The notes beneath the pieces were generated by a model that was given only the letters and a program-made list of their open reading frames with translations, made no database searches and was not told the origin of the DNA. From Thermococcus kodakarensis KOD1 (GTDB taxonomy: Archaea > Methanobacteriota_B > Thermococci > Thermococcales > Thermococcaceae), in contig NC_006624.1 of the NCBI RefSeq assembly GCF_000009965.1, positions 1,110,001-1,142,000 of the forward strand: DNA of 32,000 nucleotides, in the 5' to 3' direction. Below are positions 8,032-32,000 of the stretch, piece by piece. The position numbers and the translations under genes are program-made. Each line of letters opens with the position of its first letter. Positions within the stretch are counted from its first letter, which is position 1.

Positions 8032-9672
8032 TCATCTAGTTTCCAACCTCCAGAGAATTATGCCAACCAGAATCACAGCTACCACCGCTAGAACCGATAT
8101 CTTAGGGATGTTCTCTCTCATTCCCGTGTTTAGATCTGAGCAAAGCGGGAGGCCGAGCACGCTAAGGGGTTCATAATACGGTGGGACGATGTAGGCATCT
8201 CTCCAGGTGATAAGGAGAAACGTGTTGTTACCCACGACAACGGCTTCGGTTTTATCCGCAAGGGCGTAGCTAATGGGTATCCTTCTGCCGTTGTTTATGA
8301 TGAATGCAGTATTATTCTCGTGATCAATTTGAAGGGTTCCAGTTTCGTTATTCGGGATGTATTCGCCATTCACGGGAATATATCTAGGGGGGATCAGGTT
8401 CTTTCCCAGCTCCCTCTCATCCGTCGTGTTGAAGATTTTGAAGCCCTCATCGGTCAGCTCGTAGGCAGTGAAGCCCTCGGTAGTGGTCCCGTTCTGTCGT
8501 ATCTCCCACAAGAAGGCAACAAGGGGGTGGTCGTTCTTTCTGTAAACTTGAACCCAAACGTGATGGTACACGTTTTCATCTTCCTGGTAGTCCAGCCAGT
8601 AGTAGGTTTTCCTCGGGGTTTCAACGGTGTAGTTTCTCCAGGAGAGGGTTCCGTTTCCCAGGAGGACGTAGGAATCGTTGTATTCAGCGATGGGGAGACC
8701 ATCTATATAGAGGGCTTCTCTGCACTTTCCGCTAACCCTGTACACAACTGGAAGGTTGTACATCCTGAACGAGACCACCCACTCGTTTTTCTCCCACGAC
8801 CAGAAACCGTAGAGGGACTTCAGCGGTCTCGACGAGTACGCCAACTTTAGCACTTCCTTTGTGATGTCCCTCTTCGTGCCGTTTGCGATCAAGAAATACC
8901 TCGTGGGAGTGTATTCCGGAAGGAAAGAGAGCGGCTCGTACCTGATTCCATCCTCAACCGCAATATCGAAGGGCGCTTTAACCTCAGGAATGTGGAATCC
9001 CTCAGGGGTCTCGTTTTTAAGCTCGAAGTCTCCGTTGTGGTAGAGGTAGTAAACGGTAGTGTTCGGAAAGATCATATCTACGCGGGCCCACAGGCGGTTT
9101 TTGTTGTCCAGTCCGAGGTTGACCCACGCGTAGGGGGTAATGCCCGCGTTCTCGGGGGCTATCGTGTCCCTCGCCTCCCACGAGAGGCCCCACTCCCCGG
9201 TAACGTTCAGTGTTTTTGGGTCGAGCCTGAAAACGCTGTCGCTGGCTGAGTGAGGAACACTCCCATAGTTAACAACGAGAAAAATGCTCCCGTTGTAGAA
9301 CAGAAAATCGCGGGCATAGCCGACGTAATTGGGGAGCACCGGCCTTAGGGTTATGGGAACACTTCCGTTGTACACCCCCATGTAGAGTTCGTCGTACGGG
9401 TAAGAGTAGATAAGGGTTAGGTTTCCGGCATTGGCAACCTCCAGAGTGTCCACAATGGATAAAAAGTCTCCATCTTCGTATGGCAGCTCCTCCGCTTCAA
9501 GCTTCCATGTTAGATCTTGGAATTCGCTCCCATTGTACGCAAAAAGCCCGTCGTTCTCAACAAGCAACTGGTGACAGCTTTCACACCAGGCTGTACTGTA
9601 GGCACTCACGCAGGGCGATGAGAGTACAATCAAAACAGATATGAGAGCGAGTAATTTTCTATAGTGATTCAT
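8032..9672 (-). CDS. secreted, C-terminally membrane-anchored protein of unknown family; rich in N-glycosylation sequons
   Basis: GGTGAT RBS followed by ATG9672. Signal-peptide-like N-terminus MNHYRKLLALISVLIVLSSPCVSA. C-terminal TM segment ISVLAVVAVILVGIILW followed by RLETR. I count 16 N-X-S/T sequons by hand. No recognisable catalytic motif. Confidence 0.8.
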   Translation of the reverse strand: MNHYRKLLALISVLIVLSSPCVSAYSTAWCESCHQLLVENDGLFAYNGSEFQDLTWKLEAEELPYEDGDFLSIVDTLEVANAGNLTLIYSYPYDELYMGVYNGSVPITLRPVLPNYVGYARDFLFYNGSIFLVVNYGSVPHSASDSVFRLDPKTLNVTGEWGLSWEARDTIAPENAGITPYAWVNLGLDNKNRLWARVDMIFPNTTVYYLYHNGDFELKNETPEGFHIPEVKAPFDIAVEDGIRYEPLSFLPEYTPTRYFLIANGTKRDITKEVLKLAYSSRPLKSLYGFWSWEKNEWVVSFRMYNLPVVYRVSGKCREALYIDGLPIAEYNDSYVLLGNGTLSWRNYTVETPRKTYYWLDYQEDENVYHHVWVQVYRKNDHPLVAFLWEIRQNGTTTEGFTAYELTDEGFKIFNTTDERELGKNLIPPRYIPVNGEYIPNNETGTLQIDHENNTAFIINNGRRIPISYALADKTEAVVVGNNTFLLITWRDAYIVPPYYEPLSVLGLPLCSDLNTGMRENIPKISVLAVVAVILVGIILWRLETR

Positions 9673-9785
9673 TTTAATCACCACATCAAGGGTTTATTAC
9701 ATTCTTGAGTTGTTATTCTCCCTTTAAGCTTTTCGTCCCAATACCTTTTTAACGGGACTTCCAATTTTAACCTGGAGGTGAGAAC

Positions 9786-17899: not shown

Positions 17900-17977
17900 T
17901 GGTGGGCCCGGGGGGCTTTGAACCCCCGACCACGCGGTTATGAGCCGCGCGCTCTGACCAGGCTGAGCTACGGGCCC
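17900..17977 (-). tRNA. tRNA with CAT anticodon (Met elongator or, given the Ile-like acceptor stem, tRNA-Ile2), CCA encoded
   Basis: Hand-folded cloverleaf: GGGCCCG-TA-GCTC-AGCCTGGTCA-GAGC-G-CGCGG-CTCATAA-CCGCG-TGGTC-GGGGG-TTCAAAG-CCCCC-CGGGCCC-A-CCA (78 nt). Confidence 0.9.
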
Positions 17978-17983
17978 ACCTGA

Positions 17984-18059
17984 TGGCGCCGCCGCCCGGA
18001 TTCGAACCGGGGACCGCCGGATTAACAGTCCGGCGCTCTACCAACTAAGCTACGGCGGC
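17984..18059 (-). tRNA. tRNA-Asn (GTT), CCA encoded
   Basis: Hand-folded: GCCGCCG-TA-GCTT-AGTTGGTA-GAGC-G-CCGGA-CTGTTAA-TCCGG-CGGTC-CCCGG-TTCGAAT-CCGGG-CGGCGGC-G-CCA (76 nt). It lies 6 nt upstream of the CAT tRNA on the same strand. Confidence 0.93.
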
Positions 18060-18152: not shown

Positions 18153-18229
18153 GCCCCGGTAGCCTAGCCTGGCGGGGCGGCGGACTTGTAATCCGCAGGT
18201 CGCGGGTTCAAATCCCGCCCGGGGCTCCA
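18153..18229 (+). tRNA. tRNA-Thr (TGT), CCA encoded
   Basis: Hand-folded: GCCCCGG-TA-GCCT-AGCCTGGCG-GGGC-G-GCGGA-CTTGTAA-TCCGC-AGGTC-GCGGG-TTCAAAT-CCCGC-CCGGGGC-T-CCA (77 nt). Confidence 0.93.
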
Positions 18230-18900
18230 TCTTCAAACCTTATCGGTTCTCCGAACGCTCTATCTCCGGCGTCTCCGAGGCCCGGAAGTATGTATCCGTG
18301 ATCGTTGAGCTCTCTATCTATTGCCGCCACGAACATTTCGACATCCGGGTGAGCTTCCTTTATCCGGGTTATTCCCTCTGGGGCTGCTAGAACGCCGACT
18401 ACCACGTAGCGCTTGGCGTTACCGTACTTTTTAACCTCATCCAGGACTTTGATGAGCGTTGAGCCGGTTGCTATCATCGGGTCGGCTATTATGACGGTGT
18501 CTTCCGCCTTTATCCTGGGCACTTTGACGTACTTCATCTCAATCTCGAACTTTGGCGCCTTTCCACGGGATGCGGAGACTATTCCAACCCTGGCGTGCTC
18601 GAAAACTTTAATGAGGCCCTCCATTAATGGAATCGCAGCCCTAAGAACGGTGATTATCACGACGTTTCTGCGGTCCTTCACGATTATGCCCTCTGTTTCT
18701 TCCAGCGGCGTTCTGATGGGGACTTTTTCGGTCGCCATAGTCTTGGTTATTTCGTATGCCATGTAACGTCCAAGTTTGACGAGGCCCTTTCTGAACGCTA
18801 TCGGGCCAGTGCTTTCGTCCCTCAACTCCGTGAGAATCTCCATTATGAAGGGGCTGTCCTCAAAAGAGTACACACCTTCCCAGCGCTCGTCCCTCTTCAT
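18208..18900 (-). CDS. upp: uracil phosphoribosyltransferase
   Basis: PRPP-binding loop [13 protein letters not shown] and the C-terminal signature [21 protein letters not shown] precedes ATG18900; the ORF track starts at GTG18909. The last 22 nt of the frame overlap tRNA-Thr on the opposite strand. Confidence 0.92.
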
Positions 18901-18970
18901 GGACTTCACCGTTGGGAGTTGGGGCCTGGGTTTATTAGACTTCCGTTTGCCGATTTTTGGTAAGGAAGTG

Positions 18971-25191: not shown

Positions 25192-27678
25192 TCACGGAAG
25201 GAACTTTGGGAGGGGGTGCTGCTCGAGGAGGGAGTTCAGGAACTCGATTGCTTTCTCGCTTCCGTATGCGTACGTCATGTAGCGGTATATTGAAACCGCC
25301 GCATCGAGCGGGTGCGTCTCTTTGGTTGGGTCGAAGGTTTTCATGATGAAATCGAGCGTTTTCTGTGCCTGTTCTTCAAAGCCCGCCACGTGGTAAATAT
25401 AAGCCATCTGAACGTAGCTTGTCCTCGAGTACGCGTAGGGGTAATTCTCTGCCTTAAGTCTACCTTCCTCGTCCTGCTGGTCTTTGAGCCATGTGGCGGC
25501 TTTTTTAACAGACTCTAACACCGTTTCGTCCCCTGTGAGCTGGTAATACCTTGCCAGAGCGGATGCTATCGCAAGTGTGGTACCGATGTTATCTCTCCAG
25601 TCTCCCGTTTTACCCTGCTCGTTCAATATCTCTCTAAGAACGTTTTTCTCCGTCGTGGCGTTCAAGATGCCGAGTTCCTTGTAGAGCGGAAGCAGCAGGG
25701 CGTTTACAACAAAGCTTCCCGATTTGTCCTTTGGGGTGGTCATGAAGTAATCTTCTTTCTCTCTGGACTTCAATAGACTGAGCGCTTTCTTGGTTCCGTT
25801 GAACTGGAACTTCCTGATGGGCTCCAGTGTGTACGCCGTGTACAGCGTGAAGTCGTTGGGAGGAACACCCCAAGGGAATGCCCCGTTCTCCATTTGCTTG
25901 TACTCTAGCCACTTTAGTAGCCAGTCTGCCCTCTCCTTAAACTTCCCATCTCCGGTTTTGTTGTACAGGTTGTAGTACAGATCAACCATCCATCCGTTTA
26001 AGTTGAAATAGGCCTTGTATCCTGTGTCGAAGTCGGCGTAGTTGTAGCCCGTCCAGAACCTCTCGAAAAAGTTCACCAGAGGGGAGTAGTCCCCATGGTA
26101 CTCTATGGGGAGAGGCTGTTCTATTCTGAGTTCGGGCTCTGGGATGAACTTGTATATCACGGAACCACCATTGCAGAACTCTAGCTTAAAGTGGGTGTCA
26201 TACGGGGCATATTCCATGAGGCCATACCTTATCAGTCCGTAGGAGTAGCGCGGTCTGTCAACGAATATGTAGCTCACGTTGTATTTTTTCATAAGATAGT
26301 AAACGAGACTCCTCTGGTTGGAGCTGAACATTATGACATGGTCCGTGTAAGCCCGCGCCGCTTCCTTTACCGTTGGGGCCTCACCGAAGAACCCCTGATA
26401 AACCTTTTTCCACACGACAACGTCCTTTCTGTGGGTGTTTCCAATCAAGAGGTATCCCATATCCCACCAAACGAGTATCGTGGCGTTTTCAGGGGTATTC
26501 TGAGATATCCACTCATAGGCCTCTTTGTCCGTTATGCTCGGAATCGATATATAATGGTACGCCCCATAGACCCCCTGGAATGTGGGAGTTAAGATTAAGA
26601 CCGCTATTATGAGGACTTGGACTGCCCTCTTCTCAGGAAGGGTCTTTACAAGAGCGGAACCGAATCCCCGCACGTCATTTAGGACCCTCTTCAAAACGGG
26701 GCCAATTGATGGGAAAACGACATCTATAAAATAGTCCGAGGCGATTGCCGCAAGGGGAATTGTGGCGTAGGGATCCCTAAAGCGGAAGGAGACTCCACCC
26801 GCCAGCAGGAATGTCCAGGCCCACAGTACAAGTCCCCTCTGGAGGGGTCCTTTTTTGAAGTAATATGAACTCCCAAGAACCCCGAAGACGAGCTGGACAA
26901 TTCCAACCCACTTGAAATATCCAAGGAAACTTACCTCGCTCCTCTGAAGCCGTAAAAATAGTTCTCCAAAAGTTGATTTTACCTGGGGCAGGCCAAGGTA
27001 TGCCAGAAGTCCAGCAAGGACCAGGATGATTACATAGTGGACGTTGCGCTTTATGGTGGGCTCCAAATAAGACAGCAAGACTATCGCTGCCGCAAAGGCA
27101 AAGAATATCCATCCCCTGTGGGTTATGGTGTAGAGCCCAAAGGTCACTGCAAAGGGGATAAAGCTCGATACTGTCTTATTTTTAAGGAACCTTACACCAA
27201 AAAACATACTTAAAGAGAACAGAAGCAGCCCCATGTTTTCGGGTATGTAGAGGCTTGTTCTGTATATGAAGTTTGGGGCAAACGCCAGCAATAATGTCGC
27301 CAGGAGCGCCTTTTTTTCGTCCTCAAAGAGCTCTTTGTAGGCAAAGTAAAACCCCAGGACTGCAAACGTGCCGTAAACGGCTGGTATGGCGAGGAAGAAA
27401 TAGTCCGAGTGGAATATTCTGTAGAGGAAGGCACCGACTATGTGAAAGAGGGGCGGATAACTGTAGGCACGGAGGCCGAGGAGGGACGGTAGATCCCGGG
27501 ACACTGCCCCTATTCCACCTTCAGCAATTCTCAGGGTGAGGTCCCTATGAAGGTACTCATCATAAGCCGCCAGTAAGAGGTTTCTGTGCGGAATCAGTCT
27601 GATTATGAACGACACAATAATGAGCAACAATAGGTATATCATTGAAACGTATGTTCTCTTTCGCTCCACGGCCAACAC
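25192..27678 (-). CDS. STT3/AglB-family oligosaccharyltransferase paralog with an additional C-terminal alpha/alpha-repeat-like domain
   Basis: The N-terminal half is polytopic, with YDEYLHR in the first loop (compare the STT3 D-x-Y-x-x-R loop). EAYEWISQNTPENATILVWWDMGYLLIGN (WWDMGY encoded at 26452-26469) matches the WWDYG catalytic motif and its usual context. ...KKYNVSYIFVD follows, then about 300 further residues. The start is ambiguous (GTG27678, GTG27669 after AGGTG, or ATG27642). Confidence 0.75.
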   Translation of the reverse strand: MLAVERKRTYVSMIYLLLLIIVSFIIRLIPHRNLLLAAYDEYLHRDLTLRIAEGGIGAVSRDLPSLLGLRAYSYPPLFHIVGAFLYRIFHSDYFFLAIPAVYGTFAVLGFYFAYKELFEDEKKALLATLLLAFAPNFIYRTSLYIPENMGLLLFSLSMFFGVRFLKNKTVSSFIPFAVTFGLYTITHRGWIFFAFAAAIVLLSYLEPTIKRNVHYVIILVLAGLLAYLGLPQVKSTFGELFLRLQRSEVSFLGYFKWVGIVQLVFGVLGSSYYFKKGPLQRGLVLWAWTFLLAGGVSFRFRDPYATIPLAAIASDYFIDVVFPSIGPVLKRVLNDVRGFGSALVKTLPEKRAVQVLIIAVLILTPTFQGVYGAYHYISIPSITDKEAYEWISQNTPENATILVWWDMGYLLIGNTHRKDVVVWKKVYQGFFGEAPTVKEAARAYTDHVIMFSSNQRSLVYYLMKKYNVSYIFVDRPRYSYGLIRYGLMEYAPYDTHFKLEFCNGGSVIYKFIPEPELRIEQPLPIEYHGDYSPLVNFFERFWTGYNYADFDTGYKAYFNLNGWMVDLYYNLYNKTGDGKFKERADWLLKWLEYKQMENGAFPWGVPPNDFTLYTAYTLEPIRKFQFNGTKKALSLLKSREKEDYFMTTPKDKSGSFVVNALLLPLYKELGILNATTEKNVLREILNEQGKTGDWRDNIGTTLAIASALARYYQLTGDETVLESVKKAATWLKDQQDEEGRLKAENYPYAYSRTSYVQMAYIYHVAGFEEQAQKTLDFIMKTFDPTKETHPLDAAVSIYRYMTYAYGSEKAIEFLNSLLEQHPLPKFLP

Positions 27679-27724: not shown

Positions 27725-28804
27725 GTGAGGGGGTTAAAAATATTTGGCCTTGCTTTTTTTGGATATCTATTTCTTGCACTCTACTCCAATTATTTGGATG
27801 AAGACCTTCGCGCCGTTGTCTATCAGAGGGGCTTTGAGCCCTCATCCGTCTTGCTTGGTTTCTTAGTTGCCCTGGTTTTTTTTATGGCGTTTGCCGCGGG
27901 CTATCTTTCGGGACTTCAGCTTCCACCATCATTCCTCATTGCACTGTTTCTCATACTCTCCCTTCACGACTTCCCGAATGCATTTTTAATCGCATTTGTG
28001 GCCGTGATTGGATACTATCTCAAGATTGACGTCTTTGAAAAGTTCTCCACTTTGGCCCTCTGGATCTCAATTCTCGGCCCCATCATCTTTTACTTAAGCA
28101 TGGGCATTCCCCTTTTCCAGTGGGGACTCAGGTACAAAATCGTTGGTCCCCTCGTCCTTTTCGCCCTATTGGGAGCAGGGGGGCTAACATACTCGAAGTT
28201 TTCCACCAGAGCAAAAACACTCTTTCTCTTGGCTTATTCTGTCGTATACTTTCTCGGGACTTTCCGCTCCCTGCTTCTCCTCGGATACATCCCGTATCTG
28301 CTGGACTACACTCTGAGTCGTGAAAGAAAATGGCATGTTGTAATTTTTGGCTCGGCACTCCTTGGAATGGTGCTCATCATGAGCGGGAGCATCTCTGCTC
28401 TGCTTGTAAGAATTGGATTTACGTTTCTGGTTTTCCATAACCTGGTTCGCATCTCCCTTCCCTGGGGTTATTTTCACGGCTCGGTTCTCTTCAGTGAAGG
28501 CCCCAGAGCCCTGGTCTCACAGCTCTTTGGCGCATCAACTAACTACACGTACTTCTTTTTCGGTCAAGCGGTGGCTGATTTTGGCATATTTGGTCTTCTT
28601 GAGGCGTTTCTCCTCGGCCTCTTCCTTAGAGAGAGCGAAAGGGAGCATGAAACCTTTGTCTTTGTCTGTTCCCTCATGATATATGCCCTCGATTCTGGAA
28701 TAGATGCGCTCATCCTGATGTTTATCATTGGAGCGTTGATTTTCCAGGATTTGAGGCTGACCATTATCGGGACGAGGACCACACCCAGAACAGGTTCAAG
28801 CTGA
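27725..28804 (+). CDS. polytopic membrane protein (about 10 TM), possibly Wzy/O-antigen-polymerase-like; function unproven
   Basis: 359-aa hydrophobic ORF, divergent from the AglB-like gene across about 46 nt. GGTGGTG precedes GTG27725. There is one larger loop (WGYFHGSVLFSEGPRALVSQLFGASTNYTYFFFGQ). I see no diagnostic motif. Confidence 0.65.
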   Translation: MRGLKIFGLAFFGYLFLALYSNYLDEDLRAVVYQRGFEPSSVLLGFLVALVFFMAFAAGYLSGLQLPPSFLIALFLILSLHDFPNAFLIAFVAVIGYYLKIDVFEKFSTLALWISILGPIIFYLSMGIPLFQWGLRYKIVGPLVLFALLGAGGLTYSKFSTRAKTLFLLAYSVVYFLGTFRSLLLLGYIPYLLDYTLSRERKWHVVIFGSALLGMVLIMSGSISALLVRIGFTFLVFHNLVRISLPWGYFHGSVLFSEGPRALVSQLFGASTNYTYFFFGQAVADFGIFGLLEAFLLGLFLRESEREHETFVFVCSLMIYALDSGIDALILMFIIGALIFQDLRLTIIGTRTTPRTGSS

Positions 28805-29119
28805 TTCTTTTCTGCCCTAGGGACGAGGCTTTTGATAAGGAAAAGCAATGCTATCGCCGAAGTGATCCGGTTGAAGTTAATCCAACGCTAATCTTTGTTT
28901 GTTAGAGCTAAACCAATAATACCCGCATATGTCTCGGACTCACTCTGTCTTTGCGGTTTAGTGACCAATGACTATCCTGTGTAGTGTGGGCTCTTTTGAT
29001 GATTATCTACCCCCAATGCCCTATATTCACCATTAGTGATAAGATGCGTTTACTCTCGGCGAAATCTTTATATCACTGCTGACATCTAGTTTCCAATGCC
29101 AAACAACGGAGGTGTTGCT

Positions 29120-32000
29120 ATGAATCGAAAGGTGTTGAGCCTGCTAATCGTGGCAGTAATGGTGCTGTCGGTAGTGCCAGCAGTGCTTCCGGGGACGCTG
29201 GCAGCTCAGAACTCTCCAGAGAATCACAGTGTGATAAGGACACTAGAGGACACACTTGACAAGAGTCTGCTTCTTAGCTCATATAAAACGGGACTTAGAT
29301 GGGTTTCGCCAGAGGAATACTCGAAAATTACGGGCATAAAATTTAAGCCCCTAACAGAGTCTGCCTTTAAAGAGGCTCTAATGAACGCTCCGTACTATCC
29401 GGGTAGGGAAACAATGGCAATATTGCCCTCTACCACAGGATACAAGGTGTCCTCAGGTTTGTCTCTTCCGCCAATGGTGTTCAACAATCTGTATCTCCCA
29501 CCTATAGGGGATCAAGGTTACATTGGCTCGTGCAACGCCTGGAGTTCAACCTACTACGTCTGGACGTACATGATGAACTGGTGGAGGGACAATCCATATC
29601 CTCGCACGCCAGACGTCATCATGAACCCGAGCTTTACCTACAACCTGATTAACGGTGGCGTTGATGAAGGAAGTAACCCCTGGGATGCCATGACCCTTAT
29701 ATCTACAGTCGGTGCCGTTCCACTGGACGCGTTTCCACTCTATACATATCCTCCAAAGGAAGCATTTACAAATGGTACCCTTACAAATTACACTCTCTAT
29801 TACGAGTGGTACAACGAAGCTATCTCCAGGTGGCCCAACATCACCCAGTGGATGATAGCACCGCGTAACAGCGGTAACGACTACATGTGGCAGGCCTCAT
29901 TGTATGAGTACCAAGTTCCGGGTCAGTGGTACATAATAGACCTGTCCAACGACACCCAGTGGCAGTACCTCAAGCAACTGCTCGCTGCCGGTTACGTTGT
30001 GCAGTATGCTTATGGGGTAAGCTTTCCATTCGATGCGGTCAATATCTTTGACAGCGCGGATGAGATACTGCAGGCCCTTGATTACTGGGCAAGTTACGTC
30101 GCCACTGCGACGAACAACGAGACCTATTATCAGTGGGTCAACGAGACATATTTGAGCAACGAGACCTTCATACAGGGTCTGAAGCAGACCTTTATGCCCT
30201 ACACTGAGACCAAAGCGTTTTATGACTTCACCAAGGAAACCGGCTGGTGGGAAGTTTGGTCCAAGTACATTGAGGTCAAGTATGGAAGGACATATTCGTT
30301 AATTAAAGGTGGCCACGCTGTAACCATCGTGGGCTACGATGACAGAGTCAAAACCGCAGACGGATATGGCGTTGTTAGGATAGCGAACTCTTGGGGCCAG
30401 AACTGGGGAGATGGGGGATACTTCTACATGAGCTACGAGGACATTCGGTTTGGAGAGGAATCGTTCCAACTGGCATGGGTATACGTTCCTAAGGCGGCCA
30501 ACTACCAGCCGAAGCTCATGAGCGTCGTCGGCATAGCTCACCCCTTAAGAGGAGAGGTCATTGATGGGACCTACGATCCAAGCACGTATATGCCAGTTCA
30601 CGAAGCTGGTATCCCGATAGTTGCAGAAGTAAATGGAACTCCAGTGTGGGGCATGAACTTTTTGGACTTCTACCATGATTACCTCCCTGAAAACGTCATT
30701 CCGTACCTTGCCAACAACCGTACTCTCCTTTATCGGAAACTTCCACAGGCTCACCCGTTCCCGAACAGCCCGATGGCATTCGACGTAAGTGGGCTTGGTG
30801 AAGGGTTAGCTTATTACATGGAAGAAACGGGTGATGCGCCAACTTACATGACTATCTACACAAACGTAAGCGATATAATCCCAGACAACATAACAGGTGA
30901 AATCTACAATTTCACACTTCTCTACCAGGGCCCGACCGGCGACTACATGCTTCTCGCCTCGGCTGATATAACCAATGGAACCATTCCCGACGGCGGATGG
31001 AAAGTTATCCCCATCGAGGTTCCGATAGTGCAGTACGGAAGCCTCACACTTTCAAATAGCTCAACAATAAACTTCGGCAACTTCAGCGTTGACGTGCTCA
31101 GCCTCGTCCCGCTCAAGGGCGCCTACGTCAGCATTGACGGAAAGGAGTACCAGCTCAGCGAGGAGAACGGTGGCTACTACTTCTACGGTACGGAAATAGA
31201 CCAGAAGCTTAAGCTCCCTGCTGGAACATACAACTACACAGTCGTCGTCGTTTACCCGAATGGTAAGGAGGTCGCTCTTCCGACCAGAACAGTTACCATC
31301 GAAGGCCCAACGGTTGACATCCTATCCCCAGTTAACACAGTTTACAACACCTCAACCGTTGAGGTAGTTGTTAACGTTACCGACCCGTACGCCACCGTGA
31401 CAAACGTTAAGGCCTACCTCAATGGGAAGCCCCTGAACCTGACGGCAAGCGGATCACTCTACGTTGCTACCCTCACTAACCTAACCAATGGAGAGTACAA
31501 ACTAACTGTGATTGCAAACGACACGACTGGGGCATATGGAATTGCCACCAGGTTATTCGTCGTCCACACAAGCGCCAAGGTAACCGAGGTTATCGTAAAC
31601 AACGAGACCAACGTTACCATCGGCGTCGTCGGCGGAAGCGCCAACGTGACGGCCGAGAACAACACCATCGTTGCTAACGTTTCCACCTCCTCCGGCGAGT
31701 TCACCGTTGAGATCCCAGTTGTGAACAACATACCCGCAGTCGTTGTGAACGCCTCCTCCGTTGACACCGTTGTAGCCGGAGGCAGCAACGCCACCCTGGT
31801 TGCCGGCTGGAACGCAACGTTGACTGAAGTTTCGACGAAGACAACCCCTGTAGATACCAAAGGCAACAAGAAGGTATACTCCGTGACCATAACAGCAAAC
31901 GTTAGCATTGGCGAGAACGGTGTGGCAGTGGTGGCTCTCAGGGATGTCAACATAAGCAAGGTCTATGTTATAAAGAACGGGCAGAAGGTTCAGCTTACCA
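29120..32000 (+). CDS. secreted papain-like (family C1) cysteine peptidase with a long sequon-rich C-terminal extension; 3' end beyond the window
   Basis: My own translation from ATG29120 (RBS GGAGGTG at 29108-29114) is stop-free for 960 codons to the window end. It is open-ended and therefore absent from the ORF track. Signal peptide MNRKVLSLLIVAVMVLSVVPAVLPGTLAA. Papain triad contexts are GDQGYIGSCNAWSS (Cys codon 29531-29533, with Gln at -6), GGHAVTIVGYDD (His codon 30314-30316) and IANSWGQNWGDGGYFYMSY (Asn codon 30386-30388). Confidence 0.88.
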   Translation, partial: MNRKVLSLLIVAVMVLSVVPAVLPGTLAAQNSPENHSVIRTLEDTLDKSLLLSSYKTGLRWVSPEEYSKITGIKFKPLTESAFKEALMNAPYYPGRETMAILPSTTGYKVSSGLSLPPMVFNNLYLPPIGDQGYIGSCNAWSSTYYVWTYMMNWWRDNPYPRTPDVIMNPSFTYNLINGGVDEGSNPWDAMTLISTVGAVPLDAFPLYTYPPKEAFTNGTLTNYTLYYEWYNEAISRWPNITQWMIAPRNSGNDYMWQASLYEYQVPGQWYIIDLSNDTQWQYLKQLLAAGYVVQYAYGVSFPFDAVNIFDSADEILQALDYWASYVATATNNETYYQWVNETYLSNETFIQGLKQTFMPYTETKAFYDFTKETGWWEVWSKYIEVKYGRTYSLIKGGHAVTIVGYDDRVKTADGYGVVRIANSWGQNWGDGGYFYMSYEDIRFGEESFQLAWVYVPKAANYQPKLMSVVGIAHPLRGEVIDGTYDPSTYMPVHEAGIPIVAEVNGTPVWGMNFLDFYHDYLPENVIPYLANNRTLLYRKLPQAHPFPNSPMAFDVSGLGEGLAYYMEETGDAPTYMTIYTNVSDIIPDNITGEIYNFTLLYQGPTGDYMLLASADITNGTIPDGGWKVIPIEVPIVQYGSLTLSNSSTINFGNFSVDVLSLVPLKGAYVSIDGKEYQLSEENGGYYFYGTEIDQKLKLPAGTYNYTVVVVYPNGKEVALPTRTVTIEGPTVDILSPVNTVYNTSTVEVVVNVTDPYATVTNVKAYLNGKPLNLTASGSLYVATLTNLTNGEYKLTVIANDTTGAYGIATRLFVVHTSAKVTEVIVNNETNVTIGVVGGSANVTAENNTIVANVSTSSGEFTVEIPVVNNIPAVVVNASSVDTVVAGGSNATLVAGWNATLTEVSTKTTPVDTKGNKKVYSVTITANVSIGENGVAVVALRDVNISKVYVIKNGQKVQLT

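Follow-up and report, generated by a model that had tools for sequence, protein, structure and literature searches.

The 32,000-nucleotide stretch of Thermococcus kodakarensis KOD1 DNA analyzed here (contig NC_006624.1, positions 1,110,001 to 1,142,000; the window) raises the question of what a homolog of the oligosaccharyltransferase (OST) AglB does when it is fused to a helical toroid. To our knowledge, AglB counts as the one signature enzyme for protein glycosylation in Archaea, and we know of no roles for extra STT3-like genes and of no enzymes for non-N-linked glycosylation in Archaea. An earlier note, made from the letters of the DNA, had read the open reading frame (ORF) at 25192-27678 as an AglB-type OST paralog with some 300 extra C-terminal residues and had proposed a second N-glycosylation route or coupled glycan trimming; the ORF and all the peptides quoted are present, and arithmetic on the ORF translation confirms the WWDMGY codons at 26452-26469. 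Our results suggest that the encoded family has retained the STT3 catalytic scaffold, no longer conserves the sequon-reading motifs family-wide, has gained a toroid absent from any solved OST and is genetically linked to a Wzy-like polymerase gene, and that it probably belongs to an uncharacterized surface-glycan pathway and is not a spare copy of an ordinary AglB. We put at about one in two the probability that the fusion protein is an STT3-derived lipid-linked-glycan transferase in a Wzx/Wzy-type surface-glycan pathway, with the toroid binding glycan. The catalytic half of the protein contains the following elements, numbered along the maximal ORF:

25192..27678, minus strand: maximal ORF encoding the fusion of STT3-like core and (alpha/alpha)6 toroid, read from a GTG to the stop codon at 25192-25194 (828 aa)
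26554..27678, minus strand: GT-C transmembrane domain, residues 1 to ~375, with STT3/AglB homology
27559-27561, minus strand: invariant D40, equivalent of the catalytic Asp of external loop 1 (EL1)
27238-27240, minus strand: invariant E147 of I-P-E147, within the transmembrane domain
R140, H187-R188, R243 and K256, minus strand: other transmembrane-domain residues invariant in the alignment of 108 orthologs
26767..26787, minus strand: invariant FRFRDPY, residues 298-304, whose R299 lines up with the conserved Arg for lipid-phosphate binding in AglB/STT3/PglB
26134..26553, minus strand: central-core (CC) alpha/beta unit, residues 376-515, counterpart of the minimal C-terminal unit in AglB-S, matching Pfam DUF6798 and the CC structure of AfAglB-S2 (3vu0)
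26455..26469, minus strand: WWDMG (residues 404-408), at the position of WWDYG, with the invariant GNTHR417KD419 after it
26332..26343, minus strand: D446-H-V-I449, positional equivalent of the DK motif (D-x-x-K)

Profile and structure comparisons agree that residues 1-515 are an STT3/AglB homolog, with a predicted 13-helix membrane domain and a CC unit that together make up a complete minimal AglB-S-like core. When a profile of 31 family members was compared by hhalign with a profile of 17 canonical AglB-like proteins, residues 11-478 aligned with AglB at a probability of 100% (E 1.8e-52), with WWDMG opposite WWDYG, which upholds by homology the AglB-type core of the earlier note. Searches of PDB sequences matched human, canine, and yeast STT3, again pairing WWDMG with WWDYG, and the family profile matched STT3A/B at 5e-11. 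For the full-length AlphaFold2 (AF2) model (predicted local distance difference test [pLDDT] 91, predicted template modeling score [pTM] 0.84), Foldseek ranked yeast and human STT3 at the top (~1e-11), then AfAglB-L, PglB, DPY19, ArnT, and ALG12, and also matched the CC unit of AfAglB-S2 (3vu0); PMT structures ranked far below STT3. The AglB-homologous part stops at residue ~515, close to the boundary of ~520 that had been proposed, and its last two strands (497-502 and 506-511, 'FKLEFCNGGSVIYKFIP') match the 'V.IYK' C-terminal end of canonical AglBs and short relatives. Because the OST-homologous part ends with strands 497-511, the protein is best described as a complete minimal AglB-S-like core with an appendage.

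For the window protein, the generic GT-C model PMT_2 was the sole Pfam model above its cut-off (6e-8, 33.5 versus 26.1 bits), and DUF6798 matched around the WWD segment. None of PF02516 (STT3), PF21436 (STT3-PglB_core), and PF22627 (AglB_core-like) was found at an E value of ≤1, all three of which are matched by a canonical archaeal AglB (P0100, Thermococci/Bathyarchaeota), and TIGR04154 (archaeo_STT3) scored 25.8 bits against a cut-off of 450. Among the 31 orthologs, PF02516 was matched by 6 and PF02366 (PMT) by only 4.

Conservation was computed over 108 distinct orthologs from Thermococci, Methanobacteriaceae, and Aenigmatarchaeota. D40, H44, R140, IPE147, H187-R188, FRFRDPY, R417, D419, and D446 are essentially invariant, and THRGW, FRFRDPY, and GNTHRKD are invariant motifs specific to the family. 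D40, conserved in 98% of the orthologs, aligns with the Asp of 'DPYFH' and of STT3A 'FDPYFNYR'; E147 is 100% conserved, and its D-x-E partner position falls on I145 (hhalign) or M149 (phmmer), depending on the alignment. More than 60 other transmembrane and core positions are ≥93% identical across the three phyla-level lineages. The invariance of D40, E147, FRFRDPY, and the other motifs speaks for a working GT-C enzyme with a phosphorylated lipid as its donor.

Conservation is weaker in the elements by which classical OSTs recognize the sequon. WWD is retained only in the Thermococcus clade, as WWD[MLV]G; it is WWTTG in the sister clade, WWNLG in Methanocaldococcus, WKEEG in Aenigmatarchaeota, and TKDDA, MDDA, LEDS, and similar strings in Methanobacteriaceae. 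In the core alignment, through which the DK/MI motif was to be located, D446 stands at the DK Asp and is D/E in 100% of the orthologs, but the Lys is replaced (I449 in the window protein, V/A/T elsewhere) and no MxxI pattern is present at the kinked-helix position of the family alignment. The Glu of external loop 5 (EL5), part of TIXE/SVSE, has no conserved counterpart, a result of moderate confidence given the gapped loop: the family consensus is RxQxx[PE]V[TS]xLG[YF]xKW, and canonical AglBs show [VI]AE[NH]Q in this region. WWD, the DK Lys, and the EL5 Glu are not conserved across the orthologs, which makes it unlikely that the family, taken together, consists of classical Asn-X-Ser/Thr OSTs.

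The extra C-terminal residues, which the earlier note had set apart from the beta-rich AglB peripheral domains and likened to prenyltransferase/terpene-cyclase or six-hairpin toroids, consist of the following elements:

25213..26088, minus strand: C-terminal (alpha/alpha)6 toroid of 13 helices (residues ~531-822), placed outside the cytoplasm by homology with STT3 topology
26032..26064, minus strand: most conserved toroid segment in the ortholog alignment, E539-x-F-W542-x-G544-Y-x-Y547-x-D549
25876..25896, minus strand: QW-like repeat 1, Q595-x-x-x-G599-x-F601, preceded by W590-L (ortholog alignment)
25597..25617, minus strand: QW repeat 2, Q688-x-x-x-G692-x-W694 (ortholog alignment)
25456..25476, minus strand: QW-like repeat 3, Q735-x-x-x-G739-x-L, preceded by W730-L (ortholog alignment)

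The AF2 model of the isolated domain (pLDDT 92.7, pTM 0.92) is all-helical, with 13 helices, and Foldseek matched it only to (alpha/alpha)6 proteins (probability 1.0, template modeling [TM] scores of 0.5-0.58, 11-17% identity). These were the class II terpene cyclases Tpn2, drimenyl-PP synthase, MstE, squalene-hopene cyclase (SHC), and ent-copalyl diphosphate synthase (ent-CPS), as well as LanCL1, AGE and cellobiose epimerases, GH76 mannanases, the thioester domain (TED) of alpha2-macroglobulin/complement, and RabGGTase-beta. The IS/P1/P2 peripheral units of AglB-L are beta-rich (PMC3703281), and none was among the Foldseek matches of the isolated toroid; an ordinary AglB peripheral domain is ruled out by the all-helical fold and the exclusively (alpha/alpha)6 matches. 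The three Gly/aromatic-turn repeats pointed out beforehand (residues 597-621, 690-712, and 736-762) proved to be QW-type repeats conserved in the family, with the consensus W-L-x3-Q-x3-G-x-[WF] in three copies, each a QW-like turn that leads into a barrel helix of the AF2 model. Weak Pfam matches point the same way (SQHop_cyclase, GH127, Pec_lyase, C5-epim_C, GH88, and LANC_like; SQHop_cyclase_C in 14/31 orthologs, GH127 in 12/31, and Pec_lyase in 9/31). GH127_cat was the best toroid-type match of the whole protein, at 21.1 bits below its cut-off of 24.9; the toroid alone reached 25.8 bits, yet over only 75 of the 376 profile positions. With AF2, Foldseek, and these matches in agreement, we are confident in modeling residues ~531-822 as an (alpha/alpha)6 toroid of the prenyltransferase/terpene-cyclase/six-hairpin kind.

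The toroid carries none of the catalytic signatures looked for. Neither DxDD, the general-acid motif of class II terpene cyclases, nor DD occurs anywhere in the window protein, and the 108-ortholog alignment of the toroid holds no conserved Cys/His that could serve as Zn ligands and no known glycoside hydrolase (GH) catalytic acid pair; E539 and D/E549 are its only family-wide acidic positions. Membership of the terpene cyclases or prenyltransferases was rejected on the absence of DxDD and metal ligands and on a likeness confined to the fold, and the proposed coupled glycan trimming finds no backing in these residues. Because known catalytic signatures are missing, the modeled toroid is most likely a glycan-binding module, for the donor chain or the acceptor, that replaces the beta-rich peripheral units. 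A free-standing homolog of the toroid (P0243, 397 aa, 23% identity, E 5e-13) has a signal peptide and an E-x-Y-W-N-G motif. In two independent contigs (L048 6001-7194 and L049 2387-3580), a heme O synthase gene immediately precedes a gene of this type; a glycan or isoprenoid hint from this UbiA-family neighbor was discarded, as the neighbor is heme O synthase (TIGR01473 above cut-off).

The gene next to the fusion gene, the most telling part of the context and one that the earlier note had missed, suggests the pathway in which the protein may act:

27725..28804, plus strand: divergent member of PF01901/arCOG03206 (archaeal Wzy-like family, 'putative O-antigen polymerase'), a 359-aa polytopic membrane protein, proposed as functional partner

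The two maximal ORFs are divergent and 46 nt apart. Searched alone, the window PF01901-like protein gave no Pfam match, but PF01901 was matched by 12 of the 16 members of its family (best 1.2e-18) and by its Pyrococcus ortholog. BLASTP aligns the window protein with a bona fide member of PF01901 (109 aa, 30% identity, E 9e-12); it is 35-66% identical to the members from Thermococci, and a local hidden Markov model (HMM) gives E 2e-154. A profile of the neighbor's family found nothing among PDB sequences. The local HMM places the PF01901-like gene divergently, 28-91 nt upstream, in 17/17 Thermococci loci with upstream sequence. All Aenigmatarchaeota loci carry, on the same strand, the family gene, a glycosyltransferase family 4 (GT4) gene, PF01901, a Wzx-type flippase, a TrmB-like gene, Glycos_transf_4, and DUF354; this cluster adjoins an S-layer gene, and its Glycos_transf_4 is an AglH/MraY-like initiating enzyme. 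By its predicted content the Aenigmatarchaeota cluster is a Wzx/Wzy-dependent gene set, with the fusion protein in the terminal-transferase position. Makarova et al. (2015; PMC5898192) found that pfam01901 Wzy homologs colocalize with PMT/STT3-like glycosyltransferases and predicted a lineage-specific lipopolysaccharide (LPS)-like or glycosylation pathway; the toroid fusion and the degenerate OST motifs are not described in that paper.

We propose the following sequence of events. A repeat unit linked to dolichyl-(pyro)phosphate would be assembled on the cytoplasmic side of the membrane, flipped outward, and possibly polymerized there by the PF01901 protein; the STT3-like domain would then transfer the glycan to an acceptor, with D40 and E147 at the catalytic/metal site and R299/R301 of FRFRDPY binding the lipid phosphate(s), while the toroid, outside the membrane, would hold either the acceptor or the glycan chain. 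The donor would most likely be an oligo- or polymerized repeat-unit glycan and the fusion protein the terminal transferase ('ligase') of a lineage-specific pathway; we favor this donor and role because the Wzy-like partner sits in a complete Wzx/Wzy-type operon in Aenigmatarchaeota. An acceptor other than Asn-X-Ser/Thr is favored because the sequon pocket is lost outside Thermococcus. A more specific proposal, which we advance only tentatively, is that the family is a non-sequon STT3-derived ligase, a counterpart of WaaL/PglL, that attaches Wzy-polymerized dolichol-linked glycans to a non-Asn acceptor, the toroid selecting or binding the polymer. Under this proposal, the acceptor may be a membrane lipid, a cell wall polymer, or Ser/Thr residues in surface proteins such as those of the S-layer, and the toroid may be a polymer-binding or chain-length-selecting module.

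Several observations weigh against placing the fusion protein in a Wzx/Wzy-type pathway or against removing it from the sequon-reading enzymes. No PF01901 gene lies within 10 kb in the 14 Methanobacteriaceae loci (L001, L003, L025-L034, L038, and L041), and one deep Thermococci-like clade (L005) likewise has no PF01901 neighbor; the Wzy link of the family is not universal, and PF01901 proteins are themselves only predicted polymerases. The absence of the EL5 Glu depends on the alignment and is less certain, since the loop aligns poorly. The window protein keeps WWD and the DK Asp, and orthologs are automatically named as AglB-type OSTs in UniRef; because the Thermococcus clade retains WWD[MLV]G, the window protein may preserve some N-OST-like acceptor recognition. 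The gene order in Methanobacteriaceae is a small ferredoxin, a geranylgeranyl reductase family protein, the STT3-like/toroid gene, and a HEAT-repeat protein. The pairing with the geranylgeranyl reductase was not used as functional evidence, as it is syntenic in Methanobacteriaceae only and the enzyme may be a housekeeping lipid reductase. An operon for carbon monoxide dehydrogenase/acetyl-CoA synthase (CODH/ACS) lies downstream on the opposite strand in these loci.

The same observations bear on the possibility that the protein is a true second AglB, an Asn-directed OST with another donor or site specificity and the toroid as an unusual peripheral domain. Clear STT3/AglB homology that includes the CC unit, strict retention of WWD[MLV]G in the Thermococcus clade, conservation of the DK-motif Asp and of the STT3-type Arg after WWDYG, and the UniRef name of orthologs ('dolichyl-phosphooligosaccharide-protein glycotransferase') all fit it, and several AglB paralogs per archaeal genome are known (PMC3703281). 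We nevertheless consider it doubtful: WWD is replaced in orthologs that have the same architecture and all the other invariant motifs, a Glu is not conserved in EL5, the Lys of DK has given way to I/V/A/T, only one acid of D-x-E is left, and the window protein, unlike canonical AglB, stays below the thresholds of the STT3, STT3-PglB_core, and AglB_core-like models of Pfam. The AglB-type paralogy claimed in the earlier note thus stands as homology; its second N-glycosylation route leans on WWDMG and is not supported, given that WWD, the EL5 Glu, and the DK Lys are not conserved. Loss of the sequon-binding motifs would also suit a non-Asn acceptor of a GT-C enzyme of the PMT/AglS/ArnT kind, which would use a dolichyl-phosphate (Dol-P) monosaccharide to add single sugars to protein, lipid, or an attached glycan, the toroid holding the acceptor glycan. 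PMT_2 as the sole Pfam model above cut-off, the NCBI name GT39, the D-E pair in EL1 of the Thermococcus proteins, and short relatives of ~490 aa in tandem with glycosyltransferase family 2 (GT2) genes resembling Dol-P-sugar synthases speak for such an enzyme, which we think unlikely because profile and fold are nearest to STT3/AglB and not to PMT, ArnT, or DPY19, and because the OST-specific CC unit is retained. Moreover, a GT2 synthase is adjacent in 0/48 loci, the linked genes are those for Wzx, Wzy, and the Glycos_transf_4 initiating enzyme, which makes lipid-PP-sugar, no MIR domain is found in the window protein, and the Glu following D40 gives way to other residues in other lineages (DAY and DSY).

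Two further explanations concern activity. The toroid could itself be an enzyme (a glycoside hydrolase, lyase, epimerase, or isoprenoid-modifying enzyme) in a bifunctional protein, for example one that releases or trims the transferred polymer. In bacteria, polysaccharide secretion commonly depends on an (alpha/alpha)6 hydrolase or lyase; the fold relatives of the toroid include GH76, GH127, GH88, PL10 pectate lyase, AGE epimerases, and terpene cyclases, its most conserved segment holds the two family-wide acids E539 and D/E549, and a geranylgeranyl reductase adjoins in Methanobacteriaceae. This reading is nonetheless improbable, as there is no DxDD and no Cys/His metal ligand, the catalytic residues of no family are matched, and the matches are at the level of the fold only (TM 0.5-0.58, 11-17% identity, Pfam below cut-offs); in addition, most of the invariant residues belong to structural QW repeats, and an extracytoplasmic location is hard to square with prenyl-diphosphate chemistry. 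The degeneration of several canonical OST motifs might also mark an STT3 relic devoid of catalytic activity and kept as a mere surface scaffold or receptor, but E147, the Asp of EL1, the Arg region that binds phosphate, and more than 60 further transmembrane and core positions are conserved in the manner of an active site under selection, which makes this very improbable.

The STT3-toroid fusion is rare and phylogenetically compact. There are 79 homologs at 90% clustering, all of ~800-857 aa; the architecture had been called unusual, and it occurs in ~10 full-length representatives among 1.84 billion 50%-cluster representatives and in 40 loci among 185,579 species genomes (Thermococci, Methanobacteriaceae, Aenigmatarchaeota, related uncultured archaea, and one Methanofastidiosia fragment). 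Hundreds of proteins of ~450-500 aa match the transmembrane and CC part alone and do not have the WWD and FRFRDPY/IPE motifs; these short STT3-like proteins of the 1.84-billion-protein library appear to be uncharacterized. One metagenomic contig (L050, 6001-12399) carries three tandem short STT3-like paralogs (~480-496 aa) with a GT2 gene interleaved. Public names of the family differ: 'glycosyltransferase family 39', 'DUF6798 domain-containing', 'STT3 domain-containing', 'prenyltransferase/squalene oxidase repeat-containing', and the automatic UniRef name 'dolichyl-phosphooligosaccharide-protein glycotransferase'. No description of the fusion, or of an experiment on it, was found in the open-access literature, which is not proof of absence. 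What appears to be new is an STT3 descendant with a toroid extracellular domain and a seemingly altered acceptor site in a predicted Wzy-linked pathway. If the Wzx/Wzy reading is correct, an STT3 descendant would be the last enzyme of a Wzx/Wzy-type surface-glycan pathway in these archaea, an example of how an OST can be retooled for a new acceptor; were the non-sequon ligase proposal also to hold, the family would offer a first molecular entry point to archaeal glycosylation that does not depend on AglB (O-linked or lipoglycan, for example).

The start of the fusion gene and its composition can also be read from the locus:

27669-27667, minus strand: probable true start GTG, codon 4 of the maximal ORF, giving 825 aa
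27680-27676, minus strand: AGGTG, Shine-Dalgarno-like by direct reading of the letters, 6 nt upstream of the GTG at 27669
~25 nt further upstream of the AGGTG site, minus strand: TTAAAAGC, a putative TATA-like element, read in the same way

The spacing of AGGTG and GTG, the N termini of homologs, and an 825-aa member of the same 90% cluster together suggest that codon 4 (GTG 27669) is the true start. The gene had been described as more AT-rich than the downstream ppsA on the basis of a hand-counted line (positions 26941-27000), and that count is exact (27/60, 45% G+C); the G+C content of the gene is 49.2% (0.62 at third codon positions, GC3) versus 60.3% (GC3 0.85) for ppsA and 52% for the window. 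The low G+C is real yet modest and is common to the PF01901-like neighbor (47.5%, GC3 0.54), and the contrast is partly inflated because ppsA, the gene of comparison, is highly codon biased. The GC3 values of the fusion gene and its neighbor are markedly below those of the surrounding genes (0.71-0.85). Horizontal transfer as the cause was set aside, because the gene and its neighbor are syntenic in all Thermococci and ppsA inflates the contrast.

Elsewhere in the window, an ORF on the plus strand from 29096 to 32000, continuing past the window end, specifies 968 aa or more of a secreted protein; its N terminus resembles a signal segment, and it matches Peptidase_C1 (papain) weakly (1.4e-6), the match including an active-site-like motif, 'QGYIGSCNAWSS'; the equivalent position in T. 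onnurineus is occupied by a 1414-aa Peptidase_S8 protein. A 550-aa ORF on the minus strand (8032-9684) has no Pfam match at an E value of ≤1e-5. The region from 16.9 to 17.9 kb is low in G+C (~44%), and its ORFs are all <80 aa. The window also contains three tRNA genes:

17903-17977, minus strand: tRNA gene
17987-18059, minus strand: tRNA gene
18153-18226, plus strand: tRNA gene

The last of these overlaps the first 19 nt of the maximal ORF for uracil phosphoribosyltransferase (UPRTase; 18208-18909, minus strand), and because of this overlap the true UPRTase start probably lies further in.

Among known systems, the fusion family is closest to AglB/STT3/PglB (GT66) and especially to AglB-S (A. 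fulgidus AglB-S1 and AglB-S2, which consist of the transmembrane domain and CC only): it shares with them the GT-C fold and CC unit, the Asp of EL1, E147 as one acid of the second motif, the conserved Arg and the DK Asp, a position equivalent to WWDxG, and the 'V.IYK' end. It differs from them in that WWD is variable, no EL5 Glu is conserved, other residues stand in for the DK Lys, the D of D-x-E is Ile or Met depending on the alignment, and the family has THRGW, FRFRDPY, and GNTHRKD as motifs of its own; long AglBs carry the beta-rich IS/P1/P2 units where the fusion family has its (alpha/alpha)6 toroid (PMC3703281). The toroid resembles those of the 6_Hairpin clan and the QW-repeat proteins (SQHop_cyclase, Prenyltrans, GH127, GH88, GH76, Pec_lyase, AGE, LanC, and TED) in its 12-13 helices and three QW-type repeats, whereas it has no DxDD, Zn-binding Cys/His, thioester, or GH acid pair, is covalently joined to a GT-C enzyme, and is, by homology, extracytoplasmic. 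The predicted pathway recalls bacterial Wzx/Wzy pathways with WaaL, PglL, or PglB in its linked genes for an initiating phosphoglycosyltransferase, a GT4, Wzx, a Wzy-like protein, and an outer-face terminal transferase; the archaeal case, known here from genes, differs in that the terminal enzyme would be derived from STT3 and not of the WaaL/PglL type and the polymerase would be a PF01901 protein. It agrees in both respects with the picture drawn by Makarova et al. (2015; PMC5898192), namely, the association of PMT/STT3-like GT-C enzymes with archaeal Wzy and the prediction of a lineage-specific glycosylation or LPS-like pathway.

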